From the sequence record PX246730.1: a stretch of 64,000 nt of DNA, one strand, 5' to 3'. The notes below the pieces were generated by a model. That model saw only the letters and a list, made by a program, of their open reading frames with translations, was not told the origin of the DNA and searched no databases. The first letter of the stretch is position 1; each line of letters begins with the position of its first letter. The stretch is from a phage. This document shows positions 2,113 through 56,384 of the stretch, piece after piece. The translations under genes and the position numbers were made by a program.

Positions 2113-2186
2113 CTCTGTTTAGCTCAGCTTGGTAGAGCGTTCCGTTTGGGGCGGTAAGGCCGGAGGTTCAAGTCCTCCAACAGAGA
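2113..2186 (+). tRNA. tRNA-Pro(TGG)
   Basis: 7 bp acceptor CTCTGTT/AACAGAG, D-stem GCTC/GAGC, anticodon loop ttTGGgg, T-arm GGAGG-TTCAAGT-CCTCC, CCA encoded. Confidence 0.7.
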
Positions 2187-2196
2187 CCAAATTAAT

Positions 2197-2271
2197 GTTC
2201 CAGTAGACAAAATGGTATAGTCACCACTCTTTCAAAGTGGATATTTGAGGGTTCAAATCCCTTCTGGAACG
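2197..2271 (+). tRNA. tRNA-Glu(TTC)
   Basis: acceptor GTTCCAG/CTGGAAC, anticodon stem CCACT/AGTGG with loop ctTTCaa, T-loop TTCAAAT, CCA encoded. Confidence 0.7.
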
Positions 2272-2285
2272 CCAGTTTTGACAGA

Positions 2286-2352
2286 AGACCAATTGCAGCA
2301 AACTTAATCTTATTCATCTGAAGGTAAATCGGACAAAGAAGAGATTTGGTCT
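2286..2352 (+). repeat. spacer hairpin element copy a (CAGAAGACCAA ... TTGGTCTGG)
   Basis: inverted repeat AGACCAA/TTGGTCT flanking about 55 nt; conserved internal motif cagcaaaCTTAA; first of four paralogous copies. Confidence 0.6.
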
Positions 2353-2365
2353 GGTCATTAAGAAT

Positions 2366-2439
2366 TGCGGGTATAGAGAAAGGGCGTCTCACATGTCTCA
2401 TTAGCATGGTATCGGCAGGTTCGACTCCTGCACCCGCCT
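2366..2439 (+). tRNA. tRNA with CAT anticodon (Met, fMet or Ile2)
   Basis: acceptor pairs with ACCCGCC with 1:72 mismatch, D-stem GAGA/TCTC, anticodon stem CATGT/GCATG with loop ctCATta, T-arm GCAGG-TTCGACT-CCTGC. Confidence 0.55.
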
Positions 2440-2452
2440 CCAAATTTACAGA

Positions 2453-2511
2453 AGACCGTTTACAGCAATACTTATTAAATTTTTAGCGGAAAAAATTGAA
2501 AGATACGGTCT
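2453..2511 (+). repeat. spacer hairpin element copy b (AGACCGT ... ACGGTCT)
   Basis: same conserved 5' motif tttacagaagaccgtttacagcaa and 3' ggtctggtaat as copies a, c, d. Confidence 0.6.
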
Positions 2512-2526
2512 GGTAATACTAAACAT

Positions 2527-2600
2527 GGTTAGGAAGCACATAAGGTATGTGCGGTCGCCTGTTAAGCGAATGGCACAGGGTTCGAATCCCTGACTAACCG
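2527..2600 (+). tRNA. tRNA-Asn(GTT)
   Basis: acceptor GGTTAGG/ACTAACC (6 of 7 bp), anticodon loop ctGTTaa, T-arm CAGGG-TTCGAAT-CCCTG. Confidence 0.6.
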
Positions 2601-2611
2601 CAAAATTTAAA

Positions 2612-2698
2612 TGTGTCGTTATCCCGTAGATGGTAGCGGTGGGGACTGTAAATCCCTTGTCATTGAGACTCGGTAGGTTCGACTCCTACACGGCACAC
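2612..2698 (+). tRNA. tRNA-Tyr(GTA)
   Basis: acceptor TGTGTCG/CGGCACA, anticodon stem GGGGA/TCCCT with loop ctGTAaa, long variable arm, T-loop TTCGACT, CCA encoded. Confidence 0.7.
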
Positions 2699-2764
2699 CA
2701 ATTTTGAGAGGGCTATTTAGCCCCTCCCTTAAAGAGTTCTTACGAGTATTCTTTAAAGGAGCAG

Positions 2765-2833
2765 AAGACCAAATACAGCAAGTTACTTAAAATTTCAAGC
2801 CAATTTAATTTTGAAAAATTTAAAACTTGGTCT
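2765..2833 (+). repeat. spacer hairpin element copy c (AGACCAA ... TTGGTCT)
   Basis: conserved gcagaagaccaaatacagcaagttacttaa and cttggtctgg. Confidence 0.6.
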
Positions 2834-2852
2834 GGCTCAACAAATTTACAGA

Positions 2853-2978
2853 AGACCGTTTACAGCAAAACTTAAACAATCTATTTCTCTGGTAAAGAAA
2901 AGGCGAAGGTTCGATTCCTTCACTCGGCAGATGTCGAGTTGGTGTAATGGTAGCACTTAAGATGATAAACAACGGTCT
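2853..2978 (+). repeat. spacer hairpin element copy d, enclosing tRNA-like pieces
   Basis: inverted repeat AGACCGT (2853-2859) / ACGGTCT (2972-2978) flanks the permuted tRNA-Thr-like segment. Confidence 0.6.
2884..2957 (+). tRNA. tRNA-Thr(GGT)-like, apparently circularly permuted (3' two-thirds upstream of 5' third)
   Basis: 2884-2929: anticodon arm TTTCT-ctGGTaa-AGAAA, T-arm GAAGG-TTCGATT-CCTTC, 3' acceptor ACTCGGC plus discriminator; 2933-2957: 5' acceptor GTCGAGT (pairs 7 of 7 with ACTCGGC incl. one GU) plus complete D-arm GTGT-aatggta-GCAC. Confidence 0.35.
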
Positions 2979-3129
2979 GGTAATTATCTTTGTAGATAAG
3001 TTATTAAGCTTACCTGTGAGTATGCGACCACAAAGGGTGAAAGGGTAAATTCTAGATTTAAACCCAACAAGGCACATCGCTACAGACCTTAAGCAAGTCT
3101 GGGTAGCTTATCTACAAAGATAATTTAAT

Positions 3130-3202
3130 GGAAGTGTAGCAGAATGGTGATGCGGCAGACTTTTAATCTGACAGGCGATGGGTTCGAATCCCTCCACTTC
3201 TA
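3130..3202 (+). tRNA. tRNA-Lys(TTT) (probable)
   Basis: acceptor GGAAGTG/CACTTCT, anticodon loop ctTTTaa, T-loop TTCGAAT, CCA encoded; T-stem imperfect. Confidence 0.55.
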
Positions 3203-3209
3203 CCAATAT

Positions 3210-3283
3210 GGTTCAGTCGCAGATAAGGTAATGCAGGGGTCTCATAAGCCCTATGAATGTGGGTTCGATTCCCATCTGAACCT
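3210..3283 (+). tRNA. tRNA with CAT anticodon (Met, fMet or Ile2)
   Basis: perfect acceptor GGTTCAG/CTGAACC, anticodon stem GGGGT/GCCCT with loop ctCATaa, T-arm GTGGG-TTCGATT-CCCAT, CCA encoded. Confidence 0.65.
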
Positions 3284-3288
3284 CCAAT

Positions 3289-3361
3289 GCTGTGAAAGCA
3301 CATATGGATGTGCATTCGGCTGATAACCGAAAGGAAGAAGGTTCGAATCCTTCTCACAGTA
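3289..3361 (+). tRNA. tRNA-Ile(GAT)
   Basis: acceptor GCTGTGA/TCACAGT, D-stem GCAC/GTGC, anticodon stem TTCGG/CCGAA with loop ctGATaa, T-arm GAAGG-TTCGAAT-CCTTC, CCA encoded. Confidence 0.75.
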
Positions 3362-3379
3362 CCAATTTCAATAAAGTTG

Positions 3380-3408
3380 TTGACACTGAGATGTGACTAC
3401 TTTATAGT
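3380..3408 (+). promoter_or_regulatory. sigma70-like promoter (TTGACA-N17-TATAGT) inside tRNA cluster
   Basis: -35 TTGACA 3380-3385, -10 TATAGT 3403-3408. Confidence 0.55.
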
Positions 3409-3613
3409 AACCTTAGTTTTCGTTGCGTAGCGTCTATTTTGCAAATTTAAAATAAATGCAAACGACAATGTTTTTCTGGCAGTAGCTTGATAGGCTAAAC
3501 ACCAGTGAGGTCTTCCAATCCCTCATCAAAGAATTTGGCGTACTAGCCCACGGTATGATTAATAAGGTGGGCATCTTTAAGGGCTTTCTAAGAGAGTCTT
3601 TAAAGATTAATTA

Positions 3614-3692
3614 CGGGGCGTATCTCATCTGTCTTCTAAACAGACGTTAACCGAGTAAGTGGAGTATGCGGGTTCGAGTCCTGCCGCCTCGA
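3614..3692 (+). tRNA. tRNA-like element with TCT (Arg-type) anticodon loop, atypical D region
   Basis: acceptor CGGGGCG/CGCCTCG, perfect anticodon arm TCTGT-ctTCTaa-ACAGA, T-loop TTCGAGT, CCA encoded; only 7 nt between acceptor and anticodon stem, 22 nt before T-arm. Confidence 0.4.
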
Positions 3693-3838
3693 CCAATTTA
3701 GTTAGCAGATTACTTAGACGACCTAAGCGGGTCTTCCTGTAGGGAGGTGGTCTGTATCTCATGTTTTCCAGAACATGTAAATAATCTGAGAAGGGGCTTT
3801 ACAGTGTTGAGATAATACGGTAAGCTTCGAATTATAGT

Positions 3839-3918
3839 ATGGGACGATGTTAAGACTCTAAGGCATGAGCAACGGCTTCCAACACCGTTTCAAAGGGGTT
3901 CGACTCCTCCGTCCCATG
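3839..3918 (+). tRNA. tRNA, anticodon unresolved (possibly Trp CCA)
   Basis: perfect acceptor ATGGGAC/GTCCCAT, T-loop TTCGACT, CCA encoded; anticodon region ACGG-cttCCAaca-CCGT has a 9-nt loop. Confidence 0.45.
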
Positions 3919-3934
3919 CCAAAGTCTTATTAGG

Positions 3935-4022
3935 GGTAGGTAGCGGCTAATGGTAGCCAAACTGTCTTGAAAACAGTTGCCACTGTAGAGATACGGTGAG
4001 GGTTCGACTTCTTTACTTACCG
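3935..4022 (+). tRNA. tRNA-Ser(TGA)
   Basis: acceptor GGTAGGT/ACTTACC, anticodon arm ACTGT-ctTGAaa-ACAGT, long variable arm, T-loop TTCGACT. Confidence 0.7.
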
Positions 4023-4178
4023 CCTAATAAGATTTTAAAGCCAAGCTTCATTCGGATGTTGCTTTGGTATCCCTCGTGTTGTCGAACACACTAATAAAGC
4101 ACCTAGTAGGTGTCACGGAGAAGAGATAATATCAAGCTCTCCAAAGGTTCTAGTCACCGGATTAAACAAGACTATGCA

Positions 4179-4200
4179 AAGACCTTTTTAGGTCTTTTTA
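4179..4200 (+). terminator. hairpin plus T-run (possible intrinsic terminator or processing site)
   Basis: AAGACC-ttttta-GGTCTT followed by TTTA. Confidence 0.4.
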
Positions 4201-4278
4201 GAGGGCTTCTAAGGTTATTACAGCTTGTTGTGGAACCTTGTTGCTTAGGTTCTTAGAAGTTCTCTAAAAAGATTTAAT

Positions 4279-4353
4279 GGGAGATTGACGGTAATTGGTA
4301 AACCTATCTCGCTTAGAACGAGATGTTTGAGGGTTCGAATCCCTTGTCTCCTA
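4279..4353 (+). tRNA. tRNA-Leu(TAG), short variable loop
   Basis: acceptor GGGAGAT/GTCTCCT, anticodon arm ATCTCG-ctTAGaa-CGAGAT, T-arm GAGGG-TTCGAAT-CCCTT, CCA encoded. Confidence 0.55.
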
Positions 4354-4363
4354 CCAAATTAAT

Positions 4364-4436
4364 GCAGGTGTAGCAAAATGGTTATGCGGCTGACTCTTAA
4401 TCAGTAAGACGATGGGTTCAATTCCCTCCACCTGTA
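4364..4436 (+). tRNA. tRNA-Lys(CTT) (probable)
   Basis: acceptor GCAGGTG/CACCTGT, D-stem GCA/TGC, anticodon arm GCTGA-ctCTTaa-TCAGT, T-loop TTCAATT, CCA encoded. Confidence 0.6.
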
Positions 4437-4445
4437 CCAGATATT

Positions 4446-4518
4446 GGGGATGTAGTTTACATGGTTAAAACATAAGTTTTGCAAAATTAAGTACAGGGTT
4501 CAATTCCCTGCTTCTCCA
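4446..4518 (+). tRNA. tRNA-Ala(TGC)
   Basis: acceptor with G3:T70 wobble pair (Ala identity element), D-stem GTTT/AAAC, anticodon loop ttTGCaa, T-arm CAGGG-TTCAATT-CCCTG, CCA encoded. Confidence 0.65.
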
Positions 4519-4527
4519 CCAATTAGT

Positions 4528-4599
4528 GCATCCATAGTTTAAACGGGAAAATTACAGTCTTCCAAACTGAGGTTGAGGGTTCGATTCCCTCTGGATGCT
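4528..4599 (+). tRNA. tRNA-Gly(TCC)
   Basis: perfect acceptor GCATCCA/TGGATGC, anticodon arm CAGT-ctTCCaa-ACTG, T-arm GAGGG-TTCGATT-CCCTC, CCA encoded. Confidence 0.7.
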
Positions 4600-4608
4600 C
4601 CAAATAAT

Positions 4609-4682
4609 GCTGCTTTCGTATAATTGGCTATTACACATCCCTTGTAAGGATGGAAATGCAGGTTCGAGTCCTGTGAGCAGCA
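4609..4682 (+). tRNA. tRNA-Thr(TGT)
   Basis: acceptor GCTGCTT/GAGCAGC, anticodon arm CATCC-ctTGTaa-GGATG, T-arm GCAGG-TTCGAGT-CCTGT, CCA encoded. Confidence 0.75.
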
Positions 4683-4780
4683 CCAATTCAGAGGTCAAGT
4701 GAAAGACCGCTGGTGTCAACTGAAGACCGTAACAAATTCCACGGAGTTGAGTTAGCGGCACAACTTCAGACCTCTTTCAC

Positions 4781-4852
4781 ACTCGCTTAGTTTATATGGT
4801 AAAACACCACCCTTACAAGATGAAGAAAAAGGTTCAAGTCCTTTAGTGAGTA
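4781..4852 (+). tRNA. tRNA-Val(TAC) (tentative; weak anticodon stem)
   Basis: acceptor ACTCGCT/AGTGAGT, D-stem GTTT/AAAC, loop ctTACaa, perfect T-arm AAAGG-TTCAAGT-CCTTT, CCA encoded. Confidence 0.45.
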
Positions 4853-4856
4853 CCAT

Positions 4857-4931
4857 GTTCCAGTATCCCAATTGGCAGAGGATGCAAGCTCAAACCTTGT
4901 ACTAGTGACGGTTCGAATCCGTCTTGGAACA
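4857..4931 (+). tRNA. tRNA-Leu(CAA), short variable loop
   Basis: acceptor GTTCCAG/TTGGAAC, D-stem TCC/GGA with 11-nt loop, anticodon arm GCAAG-ctCAAac-CTTGT, T-arm GACGG-TTCGAAT-CCGTC, CCA encoded. Confidence 0.55.
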
Positions 4932-4939
4932 CCAATTTT

Positions 4940-5012
4940 GCAGGATTAGTTCAAATGGATAGAGCAACAGTCTACGAAGCTGTTAATAGGGGTTCGAATC
5001 CCTTATCCTGCG
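4940..5012 (+). tRNA. tRNA-Arg(ACG)
   Basis: perfect acceptor GCAGGAT/ATCCTGC, anticodon arm ACAGT-ctACGaa-GCTGT, T-arm TAGGG-TTCGAAT-CCCTT, CCA encoded. Confidence 0.75.
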
Positions 5013-5034
5013 CCAATTTAAAGAGGCTATTTAG

Positions 5035-5592
5035 ATGAGATATTTGAAGTATGCTTCATGGATTTTCTTAGCTTTGTTAGAGCCATTTGCAGCAATCTTA
5101 GCAGTAATTTTAGCACCCTTTGTGGTTCCATTCTACAGTGAAAAGAAAGGACACTTACCTTTTGGATTCAGATGGATGGAGACTTATGATAACCCAATTG
5201 ATGGTGACAAAGGCCACGTTGAGAGATGGGCTAAGATTAGAAAGATTGGTAAGCTCGGTGTTTATATGCAGAGAGTTGGATGGCTCTGGAGAAACAAAGC
5301 TTATAACTTCTCTTACCATGTGCTAGGAAGAGATGTAAAAGATGTTACTAAGTGGAAAGGTAATATCAACGTAAGTTCTAACCCTGAAGATAATCAGACA
5401 GGTTATCTCCTAATGTGGAACAGTAATGCTTGGGGATTATTCGCTTTTACCCCATCAATTAAAATCTTTGGTAAACAATTCTACTGGAGAATTTATGTTG
5501 GATGGAAACTTAAAAGTGTTGTCCCAGAAGAAAGAGCATTCTCAAGGGAAAGAGTTATGTTGGCATTCTTTATTCATCCACTAAGAAAGTAA
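5035..5592 (+). CDS. hypothetical membrane protein (185 aa) embedded in tRNA cluster
   Basis: ORF track; hydrophobic N-terminal segment (IFLALLEPFAAILAVILAPFVVPF); Trp/aromatic-rich. Confidence 0.5.
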   Translation: MRYLKYASWIFLALLEPFAAILAVILAPFVVPFYSEKKGHLPFGFRWMETYDNPIDGDKGHVERWAKIRKIGKLGVYMQRVGWLWRNKAYNFSYHVLGRDVKDVTKWKGNINVSSNPEDNQTGYLLMWNSNAWGLFAFTPSIKIFGKQFYWRIYVGWKLKSVVPEERAFSRERVMLAFFIHPLRK

Positions 5593-5600
5593 AGATTTAA

Positions 5601-5673
5601 AGGGGATTAGTTTACAAGGTTAAAACCTCGGTCTTTGAAATCGAAGAAGTTGGTTCAATTCCAACATCCCCCA
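5601..5673 (+). tRNA. tRNA-Gln(TTG)
   Basis: acceptor AGGGGAT/ATCCCCC (1:72 mismatch), D-stem GTTT/AAAC, anticodon arm TCGGT-ctTTGaa-ATCGA, T-arm GTTGG-TTCAATT-CCAAC, CCA encoded. Confidence 0.6.
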
Positions 5674-5678
5674 CCAAT

Positions 5679-5754
5679 GCTCCATTACTCCAATTGGCAG
5701 AGAGGCCAGACTTAAAATCTGTGTTATGTATCGGTTCGAATCCGATATGGAGTA
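5679..5754 (+). tRNA. tRNA-Leu(TAA), short variable loop
   Basis: acceptor GCTCCAT/ATGGAGT, D-arm paralogous to the CAA tRNA (caattggcaga), loop ctTAAaa, T-arm ATCGG-TTCGAAT-CCGAT, CCA encoded. Confidence 0.55.
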
Positions 5755-5762
5755 CCAAATTT

Positions 5763-5835
5763 AGCGGTATAGCATAACTGGCAATGCAGCAGTCTCTGAA
5801 GCTGTCCTATTAAGGTTCAAATCCTTATGCCGCTG
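5763..5835 (+). tRNA. tRNA-Gln(CTG)
   Basis: acceptor AGCGGTA/TGCCGCT, anticodon arm GCAGT-ctCTGaa-GCTGT, T-arm TAAGG-TTCAAAT-CCTTA, CCA encoded. Confidence 0.6.
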
Positions 5836-5869
5836 CCACTTCTAAGGGTTCTTACGAGAGTCCTTAAAT

Positions 5870-5942
5870 GTGGCCTTATCATAAAAGGTAATGACCCATG
5901 CTGTGAACATGGTCTATACGGGTTCAAATCCCGTAGGTCACC
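5870..5942 (+). tRNA. tRNA-His(GTG)
   Basis: acceptor GTGGCCT/AGGTCAC, anticodon arm CCATG-ctGTGaa-CATGG, T-arm ACGGG-TTCAAAT-CCCGT, CCA encoded. Confidence 0.75.
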
Positions 5943-5950
5943 CCAATTTA

Positions 5951-6024
5951 TAGTCCAAGTAGCTTATATGGTAAAGCGCGTGTCTGAAAAACATGAGAAG
6001 AGGGTTCAAATCCCACTGGACTAC
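5951..6024 (+). tRNA. tRNA-Phe(GAA)
   Basis: acceptor TAGTCCA/TGGACTA, anticodon arm CGTGT-ctGAAaa-ACATG, T-loop TTCAAAT. Confidence 0.7.
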
Positions 6025-6042
6025 CAATTTCAAAGGTGCTTA

Positions 6043-6777
6043 ATGAAAGAGATGACAGAACAAGGTAAGGAGATTTTTAATCTCTTAAAAACCGGTAGAG
6101 GGTTTTCTAATCCCCTTATTACTGGTGCAGCAGTTCTCGGTGGAACCGTAGCTGCCTCTACATCACTTGTAAGCTCTATTAGCTCTGTAACAGACCCTAC
6201 AATAAAAGATAAGCTTGTTGCTGCTGGGCTTACAACAGTCCTCCTAAACAGCTTTACAACAAGCCTGACAAGCACTACAGCAACTACTAAGACCCTGACA
6301 GACTACGGTCAAAAGTCTATTGATGAGTTTTCATCACGTATGCAGGTAGCAAAGGGATACTCCAATGTTATGGGTGCAGCAGGAGAACAAGTTGGTTGTA
6401 CACCATTCAGTGGTATTATGGGTGTTGCTACAGAGTATGGTCAAAAAGCTATTGACATGATGAACAGTACACTAGATAGTGTTAATGGTGTGTTAAGTGA
6501 CTTACAAGATGCTATTGATAAGGGTCTTGATACTGTTTCTGATTTAGCTAACCAAGCTGTTAGTAAGATTAATGAAGGTATCTCGAAGATTACAGCTTAT
6601 GCAGATGAAGTTGTGCAGATGATTGAAGAAGAAGCTGCCCTTATTGCAGAGTACCTTAAAACGAATATCAATGGGTTCTTAGCAGGTATCTTACCAGACT
6701 GGTTTGATGATGCCTGTAAAACTGGTGTAATTGACACTATTGCAACACCAGAAATGAAGAGCGCATTACAGAAATAA
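6043..6777 (+). CDS. hypothetical Ser/Thr-rich protein (244 aa)
   Basis: ORF 5827-6777 trimmed to ATG at 6043 because upstream part overlaps tRNA-His/Phe; no motif recognised. Confidence 0.5.
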   Translation: MKEMTEQGKEIFNLLKTGRGFSNPLITGAAVLGGTVAASTSLVSSISSVTDPTIKDKLVAAGLTTVLLNSFTTSLTSTTATTKTLTDYGQKSIDEFSSRMQVAKGYSNVMGAAGEQVGCTPFSGIMGVATEYGQKAIDMMNSTLDSVNGVLSDLQDAIDKGLDTVSDLANQAVSKINEGISKITAYADEVVQMIEEEAALIAEYLKTNINGFLAGILPDWFDDACKTGVIDTIATPEMKSALQK

Positions 6778-6778
6778 T

Positions 6779-6868
6779 GGAAGATTAACCCTAAAAGGTA
6801 AGGGAGCAGTTTGCTAAACTGCCAGTAGCTGAGAAATCGGTGTACCAGTTCAAGTCTGGTATCTTCCT
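6779..6868 (+). tRNA. tRNA-Ser(GCT)
   Basis: perfect acceptor GGAAGAT/ATCTTCC, perfect anticodon arm GCAGT-ttGCTaa-ACTGC, long variable arm, T-arm ACCAG-TTCAAGT-CTGGT, CCA encoded. Confidence 0.8.
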
Positions 6869-6875
6869 CCAATTT

Positions 6876-6948
6876 GAATCCGTGACAGAAATGGATATGT
6901 GCCTGTCTGCAAAACAGGTTTATAAGGGTTCGAGTCCCTTCGGATTCT
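6876..6948 (+). tRNA. tRNA-Cys(GCA)
   Basis: perfect acceptor GAATCCG/CGGATTC, perfect anticodon arm CCTGT-ctGCAaa-ACAGG, T-arm AAGGG-TTCGAGT-CCCTT, CCA encoded. Confidence 0.8.
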
Positions 6949-6988
6949 CCAAGTTATTTTACTCTCTCTCAATTAAAATAATAATAAT

Positions 6989-18660: not shown

Positions 18661-26661
<8,001 letters not shown>

Positions 26662-34023: not shown

Positions 34024-34407
34024 TTAGATACCTGTACAGCTTCTGTTTTCTAAGAAATACTCAACACCATACATAGCTTTTTGCATCAAATCTTCTTTAA
34101 ACTGAATACGATGATTGAGCATAGTTTGTACATCAATATCGTCATGGTGTTTCTCTTTAATATTTGCAGATTGTAGGAAATACTCTGCAAGAACACGATA
34201 CTGATAGTCAGTTACCTTATCAGTCATCTCTGTCAAAGACTCTTCAGAGATTGGTTTAAGTAACTCACCATTAGATAGAGCAACACCTTTTACAATCTGG
34301 CAAGTGTCTTCTGGGACACCTGATAAGTCCACATTTGGGAGTTCTGTTGCATTGACTGGTAAATTCATTGCCATAACCATTGCAGCAGCTAATAAAATCT
34401 TTTTCAT
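34024..34407 (-). CDS. secreted/periplasmic protein (127 aa)
   Basis: signal peptide-like N-terminus MKKILLAAAMVMAMNLPVNA. Confidence 0.5.
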   Translation of the reverse strand: MKKILLAAAMVMAMNLPVNATELPNVDLSGVPEDTCQIVKGVALSNGELLKPISEESLTEMTDKVTDYQYRVLAEYFLQSANIKEKHHDDIDVQTMLNHRIQFKEDLMQKAMYGVEYFLENRSCTGI

Positions 34408-34499
34408 AATGACCTCAAAGTTATATTAAATTTTGTATTACATTGAGTATAAAATAAGCTATAACACCTGACTTGTCAACAGATTTTATAGCTTATTTA

Positions 34500-34930
34500 G
34501 CAGATTTTTTATAAGGCTACTGCCATCCTTCCATACATTACCTTACCACACCCTACCATACCTAACCAAACTACACCATACCATACCTAACCAAACTACA
34601 CCATACAATACCTTTTTAAAAGACCTTGTTTAAAGGCCTTTTAAAAAGGTAAGTCTCATTTTAATGTAGCTGAGACTAACTACCCATACATTACCTTACC
34701 ATACCAGACCTCACCCTACCTTAACTTACCTTACTCTATCCTACCAAACACCACTTAAAAACCCTCTTAGAAGACTCTTAAGTGATGTAATCGGATTTTT
34801 ATGTAGCTCCGATTAACTACCCATACCAAGCCTAACCTGACCGCACCAAACCTTACAACACCACACCATACCAAACCTCATTAAAAGACCCTCTTAAAGA
34901 CCTTTTAAAAAGGAGCCTCCGAAGAGGCTA
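34500..34930. repeat. long intergenic repeat region, copy 1 (G-free A/C-rich tracts plus hairpins)
   Basis: blocks 34500-34542, 34617-34705, 34752-34787 near-identical to 36049-36091, 36151-36239, 36316-36351. Confidence 0.8.
34901..34930 (-). terminator. intrinsic terminator (minus strand)
   Basis: on minus strand AGCCTC-ttcg-GAGGCT followed by CCTTTTT. Confidence 0.55.
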
Positions 34931-34940
34931 CCTAGTCAAC

Positions 34941-35381
34941 TTAGAAAGGTTTTCTACGTTGCTTGTTAATGTTAGCTTTCATAGCAGCTAAATGGTTTTG
35001 CTGTTCAATCAGTCGTGAACGTTCTTGATGACTAAGTGCCATAGTGTTCACATTCTCAATCGCTTGAGTGGCTTGCTTTAAAGCGCGACCAATCTTACCA
35101 GACATTTTACGTTTTGCAATAGTTGCTTGATGCTTAGGTTCAACCACACGATAACCAACACCCATTGAAGCAACCAGATAAATCTTCTCTTCTTTAAGAA
35201 GCTTCTCAATAAACTTCTCAAGTCGGTTTAGACGTGTAAGCGCATAAGCCTTCATTTCATCTTCGTACTTAACAATGTCGCCTTGATAAGTTGGCTTCAC
35301 AATACCTAAGAAGGTATCCATCTCAGAGTGTGATACAGTGTCACCGTAACTAAACTTTGCTGCTAATGCTTTTGTATTCAT
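34941..35381 (-). CDS. hypothetical protein (146 aa)
   Basis: ORF track; flanked by long direct repeats. Confidence 0.5.
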   Translation of the reverse strand: MNTKALAAKFSYGDTVSHSEMDTFLGIVKPTYQGDIVKYEDEMKAYALTRLNRLEKFIEKLLKEEKIYLVASMGVGYRVVEPKHQATIAKRKMSGKIGRALKQATQAIENVNTMALSHQERSRLIEQQNHLAAMKANINKQRRKPF

Positions 35382-35383
35382 AA

Positions 35384-35989
<606 letters not shown>

Positions 35990-36048
35990 TTAGTTGATTG
36001 TTAAGTTGTTTGTAAAGAACCCTCAACAGAAGACTCTTTAGAAACTTG

Positions 36049-36351
36049 GCAGATTTTTTATAAGGCTACTGCCATCCTTCCATACATTACCAAACAGTAC
36101 CGTGCCACAACACACCATACCCAACCCCACCTAACTCTACCACACCTCATTAAAAGACCTTGTTTAAAGACCTTTTAAAAAGGTAAGTCTCATTTTAATG
36201 TAGCTGAGACTAACTACCCATACATTACCTTACCATACCGTACTTTACCTTACCGTACCGTACTTTACCCTACCGTACCGGACAATACTTAACCCGACCT
36301 CGCCCTACCGGACATCACTTAAAAACCCTTTTAAAAGACTCTTAAGTGATG
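36049..36351. repeat. long intergenic repeat region, copy 2
   Basis: near-identical blocks shared with 34500-34787; contains G-free tract ccgtactttacc repeats. Confidence 0.8.
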
Positions 36352-36416
36352 CTGGTGAGTACCCGTTGGTTTATGCTGCTCAGTATACTCACCAAATTTT
36401 CTATGTCAACAACTTT

Positions 36417-37520
36417 TTATTCGTAGTCTCGAATAACTAACCCAACAGGGAACTGTAAAGAACCTTTACGAGTCATCTTCTGGAACTGAACCGTTAAAGG
36501 CTTCCCGATAAACTCTTCAGGATGTTCAGCAAGATACTGTTTCTTCTCATGAGTAGTCTTCCATGAGACATCTACAAAGACGTTAGGAAGAGTCTCTACA
36601 ACAAACTTGCCATGACCACGCTTATCAGTCTTTACACCAGTCACTTTAAACTCTTCAGTGTGCATCTTCTTGTGCTTAATCAAGAAGTATGAACGGTGAC
36701 AACACTCATAGAAGGAGTCTTCAGAGATTGAACGGTACATTGCACCTTCAAACTTAGCTTCAACCCACTTATCATGAGCTTCATCGAACTCTTCCCAAGA
36801 ATTTACACGACGAGACTTAACAGGGACAACTTTACAACCATCTCTCAAATCATTCAATGGTGAAGTCTCAATAATATCTCTACGCTCAGGCCACGTTTTA
36901 GTACTGTCACAGATATCATACCAGTAGAACTTAAGTAAGTGTCTGTCAGGATTGTCTTCATTTTTAATCATGGAGACAATATCTTCTAAGTCCCAACCAT
37001 GAGCATAAATCTCTCCATCAAATTCATCAACATCTTTGTGGAGCCTTAACATTGCCATAATGTCGGGTATTAGTTCAGTAGGGATTTTATAAACAGTATT
37101 TTCACGAGAGTATGCTGTGAATACACTACCAATGCTTAAGTGTCTTGAAATTCTACAACGGACACCATCAAGTTTTGGTTGAGCATCAGCAGGGAACTTC
37201 AGATACTTTGCATGACTAACCTTTGCAGCATCATGAGCAAGCTGTACACCTACCTTCTCAGTATTCTGTGCAGACTCTTTTGTGTAAGCGTAACCTTTGC
37301 GGTCAACTTGCTTTTTATACTTAGCAGCAACTTCAAAGAGAGCTTGCTGTTCAGCGTTACGCTCATTCTTTTTACCGATGTTTTTAGGTTCTGCTGTATA
37401 CTCTTCAAACATCATCTTGCCATTTTCTTTACCATAGGTTGTAATAACTTTGTCACCTACAGCAACACACGACCAGACGTTGAAGGAACCATCTTTATTT
37501 TGTTTGTACAGAATTGTCAT
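36417..37520 (-). CDS. ATP-dependent DNA ligase
   Basis: ligase motif I KxDGxR (PKLDGVRC); about 367 aa. Confidence 0.75.
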   Translation of the reverse strand: MTILYKQNKDGSFNVWSCVAVGDKVITTYGKENGKMMFEEYTAEPKNIGKKNERNAEQQALFEVAAKYKKQVDRKGYAYTKESAQNTEKVGVQLAHDAAKVSHAKYLKFPADAQPKLDGVRCRISRHLSIGSVFTAYSRENTVYKIPTELIPDIMAMLRLHKDVDEFDGEIYAHGWDLEDIVSMIKNEDNPDRHLLKFYWYDICDSTKTWPERRDIIETSPLNDLRDGCKVVPVKSRRVNSWEEFDEAHDKWVEAKFEGAMYRSISEDSFYECCHRSYFLIKHKKMHTEEFKVTGVKTDKRGHGKFVVETLPNVFVDVSWKTTHEKKQYLAEHPEEFIGKPLTVQFQKMTRKGSLQFPVGLVIRDYE

Positions 37521-38208: not shown

Positions 38209-38724
38209 TCAACTTAGTTTTGCAAACTCTCCGTGAAGTTTAATAGCAGCTTCACAGTAAGCTTTATGGGCTTCTTCTTCTGTTGTGTATGTCCCTATAT
38301 GTATAGTCTTGCCATTATGGTTAATCTGGGCTTTCCACTTACCAGACTTACTTCTACTTGTACCTTTTAAGTTTTTTGATGTTCTAGGTTGTCTCCTATT
38401 AGACATATTCTGTTCTTTTGTGGCCTCTCTTAGATTGTCCCAAGCGTTATTCAAACCATCTCCATCTTTGTGGTCAATTTGCTTATCAGGCCACTTGCCT
38501 GTCATCCAGAACCAAGCAATTCGGTGATTGCCTGTCCTGTATCCTAAAATCTGTGTGTGCATATACACACCAGACCTTGTGCGCTTAATTGCTCCGGCTT
38601 GGCTTCCAATAACCACCCTACTACTGTGTGGAGGTCTGCCAATCCATGTTAAGACCCCTGTTTCGGGGTCATAATCTAACCAAGATTTTAACTGTTCATG
38701 TGTGAATCCACAATCTCTCATCAA
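38209..38724 (-). CDS. HNH endonuclease with AP2 DNA-binding domain (free-standing homing endonuclease-like)
   Basis: HNH signature IDHKDGDGLNNAWDNLREATKEQN; AP2-like SKSGKWKAQINHNGKTIHIGTYTTEEEAHKAYCEAAIKLHGEFA; 4-nt overlap with polymerase exon 2. Confidence 0.7.
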   Translation of the reverse strand: MMRDCGFTHEQLKSWLDYDPETGVLTWIGRPPHSSRVVIGSQAGAIKRTRSGVYMHTQILGYRTGNHRIAWFWMTGKWPDKQIDHKDGDGLNNAWDNLREATKEQNMSNRRQPRTSKNLKGTSRSKSGKWKAQINHNGKTIHIGTYTTEEEAHKAYCEAAIKLHGEFAKLS

Positions 38725-39285: not shown

Positions 39286-39553
39286 CAATACACTCGCAAG
39301 GTGTACCAGTTCTCTTATGAACTTCTCCGCATTTCTACGGAGTGTCGGACTATATCACGTAGTAGTAATACTACCGTTGCACTTGGGAATGGTCATTAGC
39401 TTACCACCCTACTCTACTCAGTTCATACATTAAGTATGCTTTTCGATAGTCTCTGAACGTTCCTCTTAAGAGGCTTCGCTGCTGATTACCATATCTTTAC
39501 AGACTTAGGCTTCCAGCAATTCACAACGTTTTACATGCGCCACTGACGCATAA
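39286..39553 (-). mobile_element. group I intron in DNA polymerase gene (no internal ORF)
   Basis: on minus strand, in order: P-like AATTGCTGGAAG (about 39510-39521), Q-like AATCAGCAGC (39478-39487), R GTTCAGAGACTA (39447-39459), S GATATAGTCC (39346-39356); 5' exon ends in U, intron ends in G. Confidence 0.7.
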
Positions 39554-41718
39554 ATGCCATTTTTGGCTTTCTTACGACCTTTTGTAATCTCGTGGAGAAG
39601 TTCCTCATCCTGTGTCTCCCTACAACGAACAATGTCTTCTTCCTTGTTCAGACCAAAGTAAATACTGTTCAGTGTATGCGCATCAGTCCCTGTGTAGACT
39701 TCATAGAGGTCGTTCTCAGCATCATAACGAAGATACTTGTCAGTTTCTGGATTAAGATACTTATCGAGATGCTTGCAATAGTATCTACCGTCATCTTGCT
39801 TAGTGAACTCTACTGACTCTTTACCCTCAGTTACTGCTTTGGTGAACTCTTTATCACCCATAAAGTTACAAAGGAGAACTAGCTGTGCAGAGTTCTGGTC
39901 AACTGAAACGATATTAGTCCCTTCCTCGCAAATCCACACCTCCCTCATAGGCGCTCCATAGACAGCAGCACCAGACGGTACGTTTACAATACCATATTGT
40001 GTCATACGTCCAGTTGAAGTACCAAACACCATTGCACCAGCACTAAGGCGACCATCAGGACGAATCTGGTTCAACCAACCTTTTTCATCATCCTTTGAGT
40101 TCTCAATAGTTCTACGTCGGTGCATCAAAGTATAGTACTTAGCAATCTTCTGTCCAAGCTCACCTTCAATCGTGTCATAAGATGACTCAGTAAGCTTTGG
40201 TGAAGTACGGATTAAACAAGGCTCAAGCAAATCTGTGTATTTTTTCACAGACCAGTTATGCTCAATGTACTGTACACCTTCATGCTCAACATAGCTCAAA
40301 CCACACCGCTCAACCATTTCCTGCCACTTAGGATGTTTTGTAATCATCTTTTTATTGTCTTTGAAACGACAAACCTTAACAGGGCGACCGTCTGAGTCTT
40401 TCTTGTAGTTCCAGTCATCTGGAATCCAACCAACTGATTTCAAGTAGTCTTTAACAACTGCTACCTGAGTCATACGAGAAACTTCAAACTCAATTGGTGT
40501 ATATGGTGCATCAATCAAACCTGTGTAGCGACTTGACTCAAGTTCAAAGTGGTTAACAACATGACTGTTATAGTACTTCACGGTTTTGACTGTTTTTACT
40601 GGCTTCCAGTCTTTGCATTTCTTACCAATCTTTGCGTTCAAATCATTGCAAATTGCACGAGCATCCTTCATTGCTACAAAGCCTTCCTTGTACTCTTCAC
40701 CAGTTACAGAGTTGGTTGGTGTATAGCAATTTCTCTTTTCAATGTTAAAAATCTTTGTAGTTGGCTTACCAAATGGTTTGATTTCGTATGTCTGCATCTC
40801 ACCGTTACGTACCTGTTGACGATACTTTGTCTTAGGATACTTGGTAATTCTTTTCAGTCCATCTGCATGACCAAACGTTTCAACATACTCATTCCAAGCT
40901 TTTGCAAACTCTTCTCCAGTCACTTTACCTTTGGTCTTAATAGTTGGAGGAAGGTGTGGTTCAACCTCTGAAGCAAGCTCATTAGTCAACTTGTCAAGTT
41001 CCTTTACATGGAACTCCATAAGCTCCTTATCAGCTTTCCAACCATTGATAGCCTGTTGACTCATCCAGAAAGATGTTTCTTTAGCTCGCATGTAGGTTTC
41101 ATAAGTGTCTATGCCACACTTCTTAAGCTTGAGATACTCGTTATCAAGTGCCCGTTTAGTTTTGGCGTTAATACGGATATCTTCTACAACACGAGTGAAG
41201 ATTTCTGCATTCCACACACCCCAATGTTCAATCTCTGGTTTACGAACACCAACACGAGCACCCCATGCAGCCAAACCATGAGCACCTTTATAGCCCTTTG
41301 GAGTTGGTCTATCCATCCACTGAACACGAGACTGAATAAGAGAATCCTGAAAGAAATTACTCCACGGCTTACACTTTGGATTATCAAAGTTCCATAAATC
41401 AGGTGCAATGTGATTGAAAACCCACCAGTCATAACCGAGACCATTATGGATGCAAAGGCGTTTTGCCTTTAACGCAAATTCAACACCTTCACGTAAGCCG
41501 CCCTTGATGTACTTGGTATACTTGTGACCGAGGATAGGCTCATCTGTAAAGACCCATACAGGTGGCTCTTCATCGTCAGATTTATAGTCTGCGAAAGCCA
41601 TTACGTGAACTTTAGTGAACTCAAGGAGTAAACCATCAGTTTCTGTATCACCAACCAAATGTAAGTTTTTAAAATCTACGTTTTCCATTTTCACTCCCTC
41701 TAAAATCATTAACCACAT
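39554..41718 (-). CDS. DNA polymerase (family A) exon 1, with 3'-5' exonuclease domain
   Basis: Exo I motif GDTETDGL; polymerase motif A region VDQNSAQLVLL; motif B start RKKAKNGI; ORF continues into intron to stop at 39505. Confidence 0.75.
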
Positions 41719-41944
41719 ACATTACTGCAAAAAATTATAAAAAGCAAGTTGACAATGTACTTGACAAGGTGTTAATCTTTGCGAAGTGGGTTTTTACTTA
41801 AAAGGTTACTTAACAGTTTAACTATACAGATACTTTAAAACTCTTAAAAGATTATTTAATAGCTTTTAAAAGCTTTAAAGTATAACGTATAGAATACGTT
41901 AAGATAAAAGATTAAAACTTAATAGTTACTTAAAAGAGGCTTAC

Positions 41945-42367
41945 ATGCAGAAAATGTTTGTTCACCCAGACATAGCTGACTTTGTTAGAGCTTTGCAGAA
42001 GTTGGAAGAACTTGACATTGCTGCTCAACGGGAATATGCTCACCATCACAGGAGGATGGTTGATATACAACATGAGATAGAGTTGTCTGAAAACTATGAA
42101 GATGACTTAAAATGCTCTGTATTTGAGCATATGAAAGATGTTGCTACAGCGAGACGTAAAGCTAAAGACACAGTTGCTTTACTAGATTCTCTTAAAAAGA
42201 GGTTGCAAAGTGGTACAGACCTGTGTAATCTAGCGTCACTGATTAACGATGTTGAAACTTCTTGGGATAGGCACTATTATCCACGTTCTGAAAAGACACT
42301 TGACTTTTCTTCATCTGAAAACTTAAAATGTTCTAGAAAGAAACTTAACCAACTGAGAGAGAAATAA
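41945..42367 (+). CDS. hypothetical protein (140 aa)
   Basis: ORF track. Confidence 0.45.
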   Translation: MQKMFVHPDIADFVRALQKLEELDIAAQREYAHHHRRMVDIQHEIELSENYEDDLKCSVFEHMKDVATARRKAKDTVALLDSLKKRLQSGTDLCNLASLINDVETSWDRHYYPRSEKTLDFSSSENLKCSRKKLNQLREK

Positions 42368-54871: not shown

Positions 54872-56068
54872 ATGAACAAAGTACAGATTATTAAAAAGAA
54901 TGGCTCACTCGAAGAACCTGATATCAAAAAAGTTTTAGTAGCAGTCACAAAGTCAGCTAACAGAGTTGGTTATAAAGAGCTTCCACCAGATGTTACTCAA
55001 GCTCTTGAGTCAGCATTTATGAGGATTCTGGTAAAGTCCACTAAGCAGAATAATTTGCTAATTTCTGTAAATGATATTCACAGTATTGTTGAAGGTGCTT
55101 TGGCAGAAGTCAATCACGAGATTTATGAGTCTTACTCAACATACAGAAATTATCGTAAAGAGGTTGCTCAAAATTGGGATGAGCTTTACCAAAAGACTAA
55201 AGACACACTCTTCTTAGGTGACCGTGAAAACGCTAACTTTGACAGTAGTTTAATTTCTACAAAAGGCTCAATTATTCGTGGTTACCTGACTAAAGAAATC
55301 TTTAAACAGTACCATTTAACACCAGAGGAACTCGAATCCATTGAAAAAGGGTTTATCTACATCCATGACTTAAGAGACCTAATTTTTGGTGGGATTAACT
55401 GTTGCCTGTTTGACATTGGTAAAGTACTGAAAGGTGGCTTTGAAATGTCTGGCATCGAATACTGTGAACCAAAATCTGTACTGTCAGCCTTACAAGTTAT
55501 TGGTGATGTAGTTCTTTCAGCAACTGCACAGCAATTTGGTGGCTTTACTTTAGCAGAGATTGATAAGGTACTTGTACCGTATGCTAAGAAGTCTCTACGC
55601 TATCATGCTGAGAAAGCAGCATCTTATGGTATTCCTAAAGAACATTACCACAATTATGTCATGGAGCAGCTACAGATTGAACTGACTCAAGGTTTCCAGT
55701 CACTTGAAATGAAACTAAACACTGTGCCTTGTAGTCGTGGGGATTTTGCATTCACAACTTTGACATTCGGGTTGCTTGACTCAGATATGTCCAATGAAGA
55801 TAACCGACTGCAATATATGATTGCAAGTACTCTCCTAGATGTTCGTATGAATGGACAAGGTAAGAGCAAGAAGCCTGTTGTATTCCCTAAACTGGTTTAT
55901 ATTTATGACCAGAAGAGACACGATGAGAATATCTGTCAAGGCCACCTGTACAGTAAAGCTATTGAGTGTTGCTCTAAAGCTATGTATCCAGATTTCTTAA
56001 GTGTATCTGGTCATGGTGCTGTAGCAGAGGCTTTTGAGCGTTCTGGTAAGGTTATTTCACCGATGGGT
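54872..56068 (+). CDS. nrdD: anaerobic ribonucleotide reductase exon 1
   Basis: N-terminal ATP-cone-like region; ORF ends SPMG then in-frame stop inside intron. Confidence 0.75.
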
Positions 56069-56384
56069 TAACAAGCTCTATAGCTCATCTAAAACGTGCC
56101 TAAACAGGGAAACTCTACAGATGTAGACAATCCTGTGCTAAATGATGTATGATGTAAGAAACTATACAACATAGGAGTCTTACATGCCAAATAACTTCGA
56201 ATACGAGTTTGAATACATCTAAATGCCGAACGACTAACCGTGATGAATGTAGCGGTGTAGGGTCAAGCGACTCGAAATGGTACGCTACTTAGAAATAAGT
56301 AGAAGATATAGTCTGGACTTACTGGCGACAGTAAGCAGCTTGAATAAAGCGGGGTAAGCTTAGCGAACTTACCTGAACAACAAG
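56069..56384 (+). mobile_element. group I intron in nrdD (316 nt, no internal ORF)
   Basis: P-like CAGGGAAA (56105-56112), Q-like AATCCTGTGC (56129-56138), R-like CGAACGACTAAC (56227-56238), S AAGATATAGTC (56303-56313); 5' exon ends in T, intron ends in G; splicing gives in-frame SPMG|CRAFLSP. Confidence 0.7.

Follow-up and report, generated by a model that had tools for sequence, protein, structure and literature searches.

What kind of element joins long plus-strand runs without a single G to small hairpins that share a loop and differ in their stems? The question is raised by IGR-1, a 533-bp non-coding gap (34408-34940) with a minus-strand gene on either side, in the 64-kb window, the whole stretch of DNA that was analysed. 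The window belongs to a Felix-O1-like myophage (Felixounavirus), and the 12 kb around the repeat arrays are 93-95% identical to Escherichia phages REP5-REP11 and to many relatives from Salmonella, Shigella and Citrobacter. These repeats go unmentioned in the Felix O1 genome paper and in a paper on a Felix-like genome. An earlier note on this DNA had inferred a structured RNA from the minus strand, a reading that is correct but incomplete. Our analysis indicates with high confidence that the tracts and hairpins belong to a SUSP1-clade locus of the type II VIPR (Viral Interference Programmable Repeat) system as it appears on the plus strand, with five predicted vrRNA genes on the minus strand. 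The feature is real but already explained, since VIPR was described in 2026 preprints and in the sister phage SUSP1; the locus is a natural instance of a known system and not a new kind.

The arrays are situated among replication genes (ligase, polymerase and thymidylate synthase). Elsewhere in the window, 24 tRNA genes cluster on the plus strand at 2113-6951, as is typical of Felix-O1-like phages, and two group I introns (39325-39608, minus strand; 56011-56335, plus strand) exceed the gathering threshold of Rfam. The former lies within the DNA polymerase region, for which relatives carry a two-piece annotation, and a nearby ORF (38209-38724) appears from its sequence to be homing endonuclease-like.

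The long G-free stretches that the earlier note had reported on the plus strand are real. Across the whole window, only four plus-strand runs of at least 45 nt lack G, at 34523-34621 (99 nt), 34708-34769 (62 nt), 36105-36155 (51 nt) and 41681-41726 (46 nt), and no C-, A- or T-free run on that strand is longer than 43 nt. The 99-nt run exceeded all 300 shuffles within 1-kb blocks (mean 47 nt, maximum 74 nt); the 62-nt run taken alone did not exceed the same shuffles. The tracts are periodic, with an autocorrelation of 0.46-0.48 at lags 5, 10 and 15 against 0.19-0.34 at other lags, and period-5 arrays within them were also called by Tandem Repeats Finder. The 46-nt run, which overlaps a minus-strand gene start, belongs to a divergent-promoter gap (41681-41950) at a switch in gene orientation, with TTTAAAAGCT-type repeats; this gap has no GGYNN periodicity and was rejected as a VIPR array.

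Pentamer guides and folded tails on the minus strand

All local genes have the minus strand as their sense strand, and in that orientation IGR-1 resolves into three vrRNA modules, and a second gap of 430 bp located 1 kb away (IGR-2, 35987-36416) into two more. The array in IGR-2 (36047-36309) is paralogous to that in IGR-1, with 82% identity over 262 nt in a self-comparison, and the two gaps bracket a two-gene cassette, vipr-vap1. The five vrRNA genes are named U1 and U2 upstream of the cassette and D3, D2 and D1 downstream of it (Table 1), with predicted sizes of 89-124 nt for guide plus tail. The 99-nt G-free run is the reverse complement of vrRNA D1. Canonical GGY units make up 65-91% of each guide, and the other 9-35% read AGU, UGU, GUU or GAU. 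The earlier note had missed the pentamer code, a pseudoknot formed by the hairpin loop, a third tail type (34498-34532) and the paralogous array. Guide D1 contains a 25-nt tandem duplication (34548-34613, 2.6 copies, 95% match), which adds five units to a guide that has 11 units in sister phages and shows how slippage in the 5-nt register changes guide length.

The comparison set comprised 39 orthologous gaps from 25 related loci, and code statistics were taken over 775 units in 67 distinct orthologous tracts. G occupies position 1 in 84% of the units (A or U in 16%) and position 2 in 98.5%, and T or C occupies position 3 in 100%, figures that are somewhat inflated by a unit parser demanding two of three GGY matches per unit; positions 4 and 5 (NN) are close to random, with 15% C. 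The gaps measure 249-598 bp and contain one to three modules each. Conservation in related genomes, which the earlier note had expected of hairpins and tracts alike, was found in part: the hairpins and the AT-rich spacers are near-invariant, but the tracts cannot be aligned between phages even though the flanking genes are 94-99% identical, and only a GGY every 5 nt is kept. Nor is G-freeness an essential property, since the C at NN positions of orthologous tracts is a plus-strand G and GGC units occur as well. Judged from these tracts, the conserved property is GGY every five bases, and G-freeness is a local extreme. The window is an extreme case because its NN pairs happen to lack C, helped by the 25-nt duplication.

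Each guide is followed by a constant segment of 34-35 nt with a stem and a pseudoknot, in which CUAC of the hairpin loop pairs with GUAG just upstream of the stem. The two hairpins noted earlier lie at the positions claimed for them, with AGTCTCA (34652-34658) facing TGAGACT (34671-34677) and AATCGGA (34789-34795) facing TCCGATT (34808-34814). Their shared motif, ATGTAGC-N7-AACTACCCATAC, occurs in three copies in the window (34664, 34801 and 36198), against zero expected by chance. The stems differ at three of seven pairs and all three differences are compensated, as had been proposed. Among all tails compared, the stem 1 classes are AGUCUCA/UGAGACU, AAUCGRA/UYCGAUU, UGGCAG/CUGCYA and UGGUAG/CUACCA, and the pseudoknot classes are GUAG/CUAC, AAGG/CCUU and GUGG/CCAC.

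Selection for structure, suggested earlier from the two stems, is borne out by tails from related phages. In 14 distinct A/B tails, all of the 154 cells pair (154/154, 100%), with three of seven stem pairs changed on both sides, against 23-34% when the partner columns are slid. Eight C/C' tails pair in 97.5% of cells and are compensated at two of six stem pairs and two of four pseudoknot pairs; over the A/B and C/C' sets, sliding lowers pairing to 23-52%. Most of this covariation lies between paralogous tail classes and not in gradual change of orthologues, so independent covariation events are few. When IMG/VR was scanned for the hairpin motif and the stems were left free to vary, only the window's two stem types came up, so that no orthologous covariation was gained. 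In most sister phages, an A.C mismatch of the type B stem on the plus strand is a G.U wobble on the minus strand, from which it follows that the tail structure works on the minus strand, the one the earlier note had favoured; in one phage the type B stem is fully compensated to A-U in place of the wobble. Rfam 15 returned nothing near a gathering score for the region 34350-36450 (best 21 bits against a threshold of 44) and nothing relevant at gathering thresholds over the whole window or at E-value thresholds in the region; vrRNAs are absent from Rfam 15.

The sigma-70-like promoter in IGR-2 stands at the upstream end of that gap, ahead of the upstream vrRNA pair and vipr, and is kept in all orthologous gaps compared. 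The AT-rich inverted repeat in IGR-1 folds in both strand models and is conserved among orthologues, and similar spacers occur at 34754-34786, 34879-34913 and 36148-36185. Such spacers could be a processing or termination signal.

Table 1 Features of the vrRNA arrays and the vipr-vap1 cassette (window coordinates)
Feature	Position	Strand	Remarks
Sigma-70-like promoter (putative)	36382..36409	-	TTGACA-16-TATACT; 11 of 12 consensus matches; consensus match only
vrRNA U1 (predicted)	36186..36309	-	Guide 36309-36220, 18 GGYNN units (13 canonical); type A tail 36219-36186
vrRNA U2 (predicted)	36047..36146	-	Guide 36146-36082, 13 units; type C tail 36081-36047
vipr, 195 aa	35384..35971	-	ATG at 35971 is residue 1 of the solved protein
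vap1-like accessory gene, 146 aa	34941..35381	-	Directly downstream of vipr (2 nt)
Intrinsic-terminator-like hairpin	34914..34929	-	AGCCTCTTCGGAGGCT then T run; directly after vap1, at start of IGR-1
vrRNA D3 (predicted)	34789..34877	-	Guide 34877-34823, 11 units; type B tail 34822-34789 (second hairpin of the earlier note)
vrRNA D2 (predicted)	34652..34745	-	Guide 34745-34686, 12 units, several non-canonical; type A tail 34685-34652 (first noted hairpin)
AT-rich 19-bp inverted repeat	34609..34651		95% complementary; between D2 tail and D1 guide
vrRNA D1 (predicted)	34498..34612	-	Guide 34612-34533, 16 units; type C tail 34532-34498
Sigma-70-like promoter of next gene (34024-34407)	34451..34479	-	Marks array end; promoter annotation in phage AYO145A

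The vipr-vap1 cassette, the published system and its distribution

VIPR was reported in two non-peer-reviewed bioRxiv preprints of April-June 2026 (10.64898/2026.04.26.720920 and 10.64898/2026.04.26.720927). According to their available text, the system comprises Vipr, a protein of minimal RAMP fold (RRM core, G-loop and thumb), usually an accessory vap, and vrRNAs of about 100 nt that co-purify with Vipr and repress transcription of their targets (10.64898/2026.04.26.720920,.720927). A vrRNA carries 9-16 YNNGG repeats with conserved GGY and hypervariable NN, followed by a constant 3' tail that has a pseudoknot in the SUSP1 clade; each repeat is bound by one Vipr protomer, which sequesters GGY and presents NN, and the NN pairs read double-stranded DNA as xNNxNN, every third target base being skipped, with the result that transcription is silenced (10.64898/2026.04.26.720920,.720927). 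Changing GGY to AGY or GAY is reported to abolish silencing (10.64898/2026.04.26.720920/.720927). The vipr-vap1 operon of SUSP1 has one vrRNA upstream and three downstream, and most natural targets are located on a satellite with a baseplate hub that shares 72% identity with the phage's (10.64898/2026.04.26.720920,.720927). The authors propose that VIPR predates CRISPR (10.64898/2026.04.26.720920,.720927).

The window's Vipr is identical at 191 of 195 residues (98%) to PDB 36pp, "SUSP1 Vipr protein" (E 7e-128); its mechanical ORF extends to 35986, with a GTG start and 200 aa. All RNA and DNA contact residues named in the available text of the structural preprint (10.64898/2026.04.26.720927) are present, namely H17, K33, R39, E71, M72, K82, K88, R138, C173, D177, W178 and R179, as is the G-loop, CGVGDWRP. 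Vipr was assigned to phrog_4652 and to no Pfam family. The vap1-like gene (phrog_5926) occupies the position of vap in the published two-gene VIPR operon, and the other vipr-positive Felixounavirus loci that carry it, the SUSP2 contig included, share its first 160 nt at 95-99% identity; its product gave no Pfam match and no PDB sequence match.

If the published mechanism holds for this locus, the five minus-strand vrRNAs would be transcribed, each as a guide of 11-18 GGYNN units with a hairpin and pseudoknot tail of 34-35 nt. One Vipr protomer would bury the GGY of each repeat and expose its NN, and the NN pairs would together read double-stranded DNA as xNNxNN and so on, one base skipped per unit, leading to silencing of transcription. 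Several features count against the VIPR reading: the three downstream vrRNAs sit behind the terminator-like hairpin, U1, with 18 units, lies beyond the published range, D1 combines its duplication with a marginal match, and D3 has no target. Since AGY and GAY triplets are reported to abolish silencing while the window has non-GGY units, some of its guides or units may be impaired.

A tblastn search recovered Vipr from just 130 phage records, of which 118 come from close relatives. By contrast, 231-266 Felixounavirus records contain the array sequence or the genes around it; about half of the Felixounavirus records are without vipr and have kept the arrays, so arrays can persist without Vipr. 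In at least 33 records the array lies directly between the flanking genes, with no cassette, and of eight guides taken from such orphan arrays, five retain satellite matches of at least 80%. A two-vrRNA array occupies the same site in the cassette-less loci L007, L015, L040, L084 and L125 (a merged gap from the gene for a 127-aa protein to ligase), and NC_027329 SP116, JN225449 UAB_Phi87 and MZ501086 JohannRWettstein are cassette-less examples; Bas63 is another phage with orphan vrRNAs and no vipr. Loss or gain of the cassette could occur through the direct repeats on either side of it. Upstream of vipr, this phage and most relatives have two tract-plus-tail modules.

Beyond Felixounavirus, an IMG/VR scan for seven in-phase ACC triplets recovered more than 120 contigs, many from unrelated phages, with several to about 20 tracts each and diverse NN. 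In the three arrays inspected, a gene ending in G-x-G-D-(W/F)-R-P abuts the array, like the 200-aa ORF of the window, and tblastn placed Vipr homologues of 20-43% identity beside (ACCNN)n arrays in at least 29 unrelated contigs of this set. By this sampling, the genetic linkage of Vipr and array is independent of phage type. Unrelated viral contigs (L146, L222, L136, L152, L156, L215, L135, L143 and others) have much larger (GGYNN)n arrays, with as many as about 20 tracts; these have very short spacers (e.g. CATTAGCC or AAATTAAATTCATTAAACC) in place of hairpin tails and lie directly downstream of a distant Vipr homologue in all three cases inspected; they are probably other VIPR types. Phage heid (L126) has no further copies of the array in its first 45 kb. 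Its 1.7-kb non-coding region at 23201-24883, with CTTAACAA-like repeats, G-free and C-free runs of its own and several annotated repeat_regions, was rejected as a vrRNA array, being unrelated in sequence, and may be a genome-end region.

Matches to satellite islands and rival vrRNA genes

Copies of the phage's baseplate-hub gene (20873-21670), with 70-96% identity, were found in 474 of 5,426 complete E. coli genomes. Each copy lies in a satellite-like island of about 11 kb with recombinases, a tape-measure gene and, in most of those sampled, a DNA methyltransferase. The islands are inserted in a DUF72 gene between yecN and yecD, at the mdtG-lpxL locus, between yciI and tonB, and at other sites; NZ_CP104526 (2020586-2032106) provides an example. 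The islands L245, L253 and L255 carry a vrRNA of their own, of 12-13 units, without Vipr, and tblastn found no Vipr in 12 satellite loci.

Each guide's NN pairs, with 0-3 free bases between them, were scored for identity at every offset of 12 of the 474 islands. At a skip of 1 nt, U1 matched a satellite gene of about 185 aa at 32 of 36 NN positions (89%), U2 matched satellite DNA at 25 of 26 (96%), and D2 matched the gene for a satellite helix-turn-helix protein at 21 of 24 (88%); in the U1 and D2 matches, it is the third codon base that is skipped. Under skip rules of 0, 2 or 3 nt, the best matches reached only 21-23/36 (U1), 17-18/26 (U2) and 17-18/24 (D2), and the maxima with shuffled units were 26, 21 and 20, respectively. 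Other skip rules or shuffled guides attain at most 81%, against 88-96% for the three real guides. Both upstream guides have strong satellite matches. The 11 units at the 3' end of D1 match a satellite helix-turn-helix gene at 19 of 22 positions, which is marginal (shuffle maximum 18) and off the wobble phase. For D3, no target above background was found in the 12 satellites and 2 Mb of other loci, and an exact xNN scan of IMG/VR gave zero hits.

The same rule extends to the clade. With six satellites, 34 of 61 distinct clade guides matched at 80% or more at skip 1, against one or two under other rules or shuffles, and with 12 satellites the count was 38 of 61. No self-target of 80% NN or more was found in the 64-kb window, where the best matches reached 64-73% (23/36, 19/26, 16/22, 17/24 and 21/32). 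The published one-base-skip code is thereby supported, having been re-derived independently from public genomes. These matches suggest that the phage would use VIPR to silence a parasitic satellite and rival VIPR loci.

The target of U2 is not a protein gene but the last two repeats and C'-type tail of the satellites' vrRNA gene. Against the islands that bear a vrRNA without vipr, U2 scores 24-25/26 (L245 7188-7226, L253 2148-2186 and L255 2282-2320), and against the C' tails of the upstream vrRNA in IGR-2 it scores 22-25/26 in 18 of 18 other vipr-positive relatives sampled. The tails of its own phage are matched at only 19/26: the vipr-proximal upstream tail is of type C in this phage alone, against C' in the 18 other sampled loci, and this C-type tail at the vipr-proximal position lowers the self-match. 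A tentative interpretation, to which we give somewhat less than even weight, is that U2 acts as an anti-VIPR guide paired with a handle swap; seen alongside the vipr-less arrays of about half the genus, this would make Vipr a shared resource that phages and satellites hijack and defend by targeting and swapping handles. A handle-directed guide coupled to a handle swap goes beyond the available text of the preprints and is our inference.

Alternative readings and related systems

An alternative that we hold to be improbable keeps VIPR but places the locus in decay, with arrays that are relics evolving by slippage and some or no guides functional here. The 9-35% of non-canonical units per guide would fit such a history, as would the internal duplication of D1, the lack of a target for D3 and the retention of arrays without vipr in about half of the Felixounavirus records. 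It is opposed by an intact Vipr with every contact residue, by the 88-96% matches of three guides to satellite DNA with the skipped base in wobble phase, by fully paired tails and by the near-invariance of G at position 2 and the pyrimidine at position 3. For D1 and D3, a partly decayed VIPR locus is possible. Plain slippage products were rejected, as they leave the strict conservation of G2 and Y3 next to free NN, the linkage to Vipr in unrelated phages and the foreign matches in a 3-nt register unexplained.

Readings without a guide function fare far worse. Were the region a replication origin, the tracts would be iterons, or a G-rich non-template strand favouring an R-loop primer, and the hairpins would be single-strand initiation signals. 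Its position among replication genes suits this idea, as does a strong strand asymmetry with transcription toward G-rich RNA, as in R-loop origins, of which those of ColE1 and T4 are examples. However, just three of five bases are conserved while the rest turns over completely between sister phages, module number varies from one to three, the arrays come after Vipr homologues in unrelated phages regardless of gene context, and the variable bases match foreign DNA in a 3-nt register that no origin model predicts. We consider an origin highly implausible, and the origin tests that the earlier note had advised were misdirected, since VIPR guide RNAs account for both features, the tracts as their guides and the hairpins as their 3' handles. 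An iteron-type origin was rejected specifically on its 3-nt core, with 40% of the unit free, its variable copy number and an adjacent protein that is Vipr and not an initiator. The chances of a Rho-related function are just as slim. A C-rich, G-free plus strand could load Rho against antisense transcription, or a C-free sense RNA could be a Rho-proof untranslated spacer, and, with its CC at 5-nt intervals and the hairpins behind it, the 99-nt G-free tract does resemble an ideal rut with a pause site. Yet G-freeness is unconserved, orthologous tracts carrying plus-strand G at variable positions and as GCC; no promoter was found in the region on the plus strand, which is antisense to the local genes, and the wobble evidence puts the structure on the minus strand. 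A Rho-dependent terminator was accordingly rejected, the C-rich, G-poor stretch of 70 nt or more being present in the window but not kept in orthologues. Tandem two-tetrad G-quadruplexes, formed by a (GGNNN)n strand as a structural or regulatory signal without a protein code, have even less chance of being correct: GG doublets with 3-nt loops fit the minimal motif, but the pyrimidine at position 3 and the strict 5-nt register are conserved though unneeded, the guanines are held by Vipr in the published structure and the matches of NN to targets are left unexplained. An RNA sponge of CsrA or TRAP type and ToxI-like antitoxin repeats were also rejected. The origin, rut, quadruplex, sponge and ToxI-like readings were set aside for three reasons: NN is hypervariable, the arrays are associated with Vipr, and the guides match targets.

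As a type II VIPR locus, the window agrees with the SUSP1 clade in its 98% identical Vipr, its vrRNA-flanked vipr-vap operon, its GGY/NN pentamers and the hairpin and pseudoknot of the 3' tail, and also in targets on E. coli satellite islands read by a 1-nt skip, with no self-targeting. It departs in having two upstream vrRNAs, against one reported for SUSP1, an 18-unit U1 against the reported 9-16, 9-35% non-GGY units and a different guide set. VIPR is a newly reported, minimal form of RNA-guided recognition of double-stranded DNA, to which this locus adds modestly: a second upstream vrRNA, tolerated non-GGY units, a candidate anti-handle guide with its handle swap, and widespread vipr-less arrays. 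These points are leads on how VIPR loci compete and decay.

Class 1 CRISPR-Cas (Cas7 on crRNA) resembles VIPR, as the available text of the preprints has it, in a RAMP-fold protein that polymerises along the guide with a thumb that flips bases periodically, in a variable guide capped by a constant handle and in arrays that alternate constant and variable segments; that text reports no cas1, cas2 or other cas genes for VIPR loci (10.64898/2026.04.26.720920,.720927). The CRISPR spacer is contiguous, whereas the variable segment of VIPR is a 5-nt-periodic code in a 5:3 register; the constant part is the repeat in CRISPR and the 3' tail in VIPR, and VIPR is encoded by phages and satellites. We know of no acquisition machinery for VIPR.

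The leader RNA of trp in Bacillus, bound by TRAP, contains 11 G/UAG triplets spaced 2-3 nt apart. As in VIPR, a homo-oligomer reads a conserved triplet about every 5 nt with the spacer bases free, and this analogy was the reason why a partner protein was looked for. The two systems have no relationship in sequence or fold. TRAP is a closed ring whose triplets serve binding only and whose spacers are uninformative, whereas in VIPR the spacers are the information and the protein forms an open helical filament on DNA.
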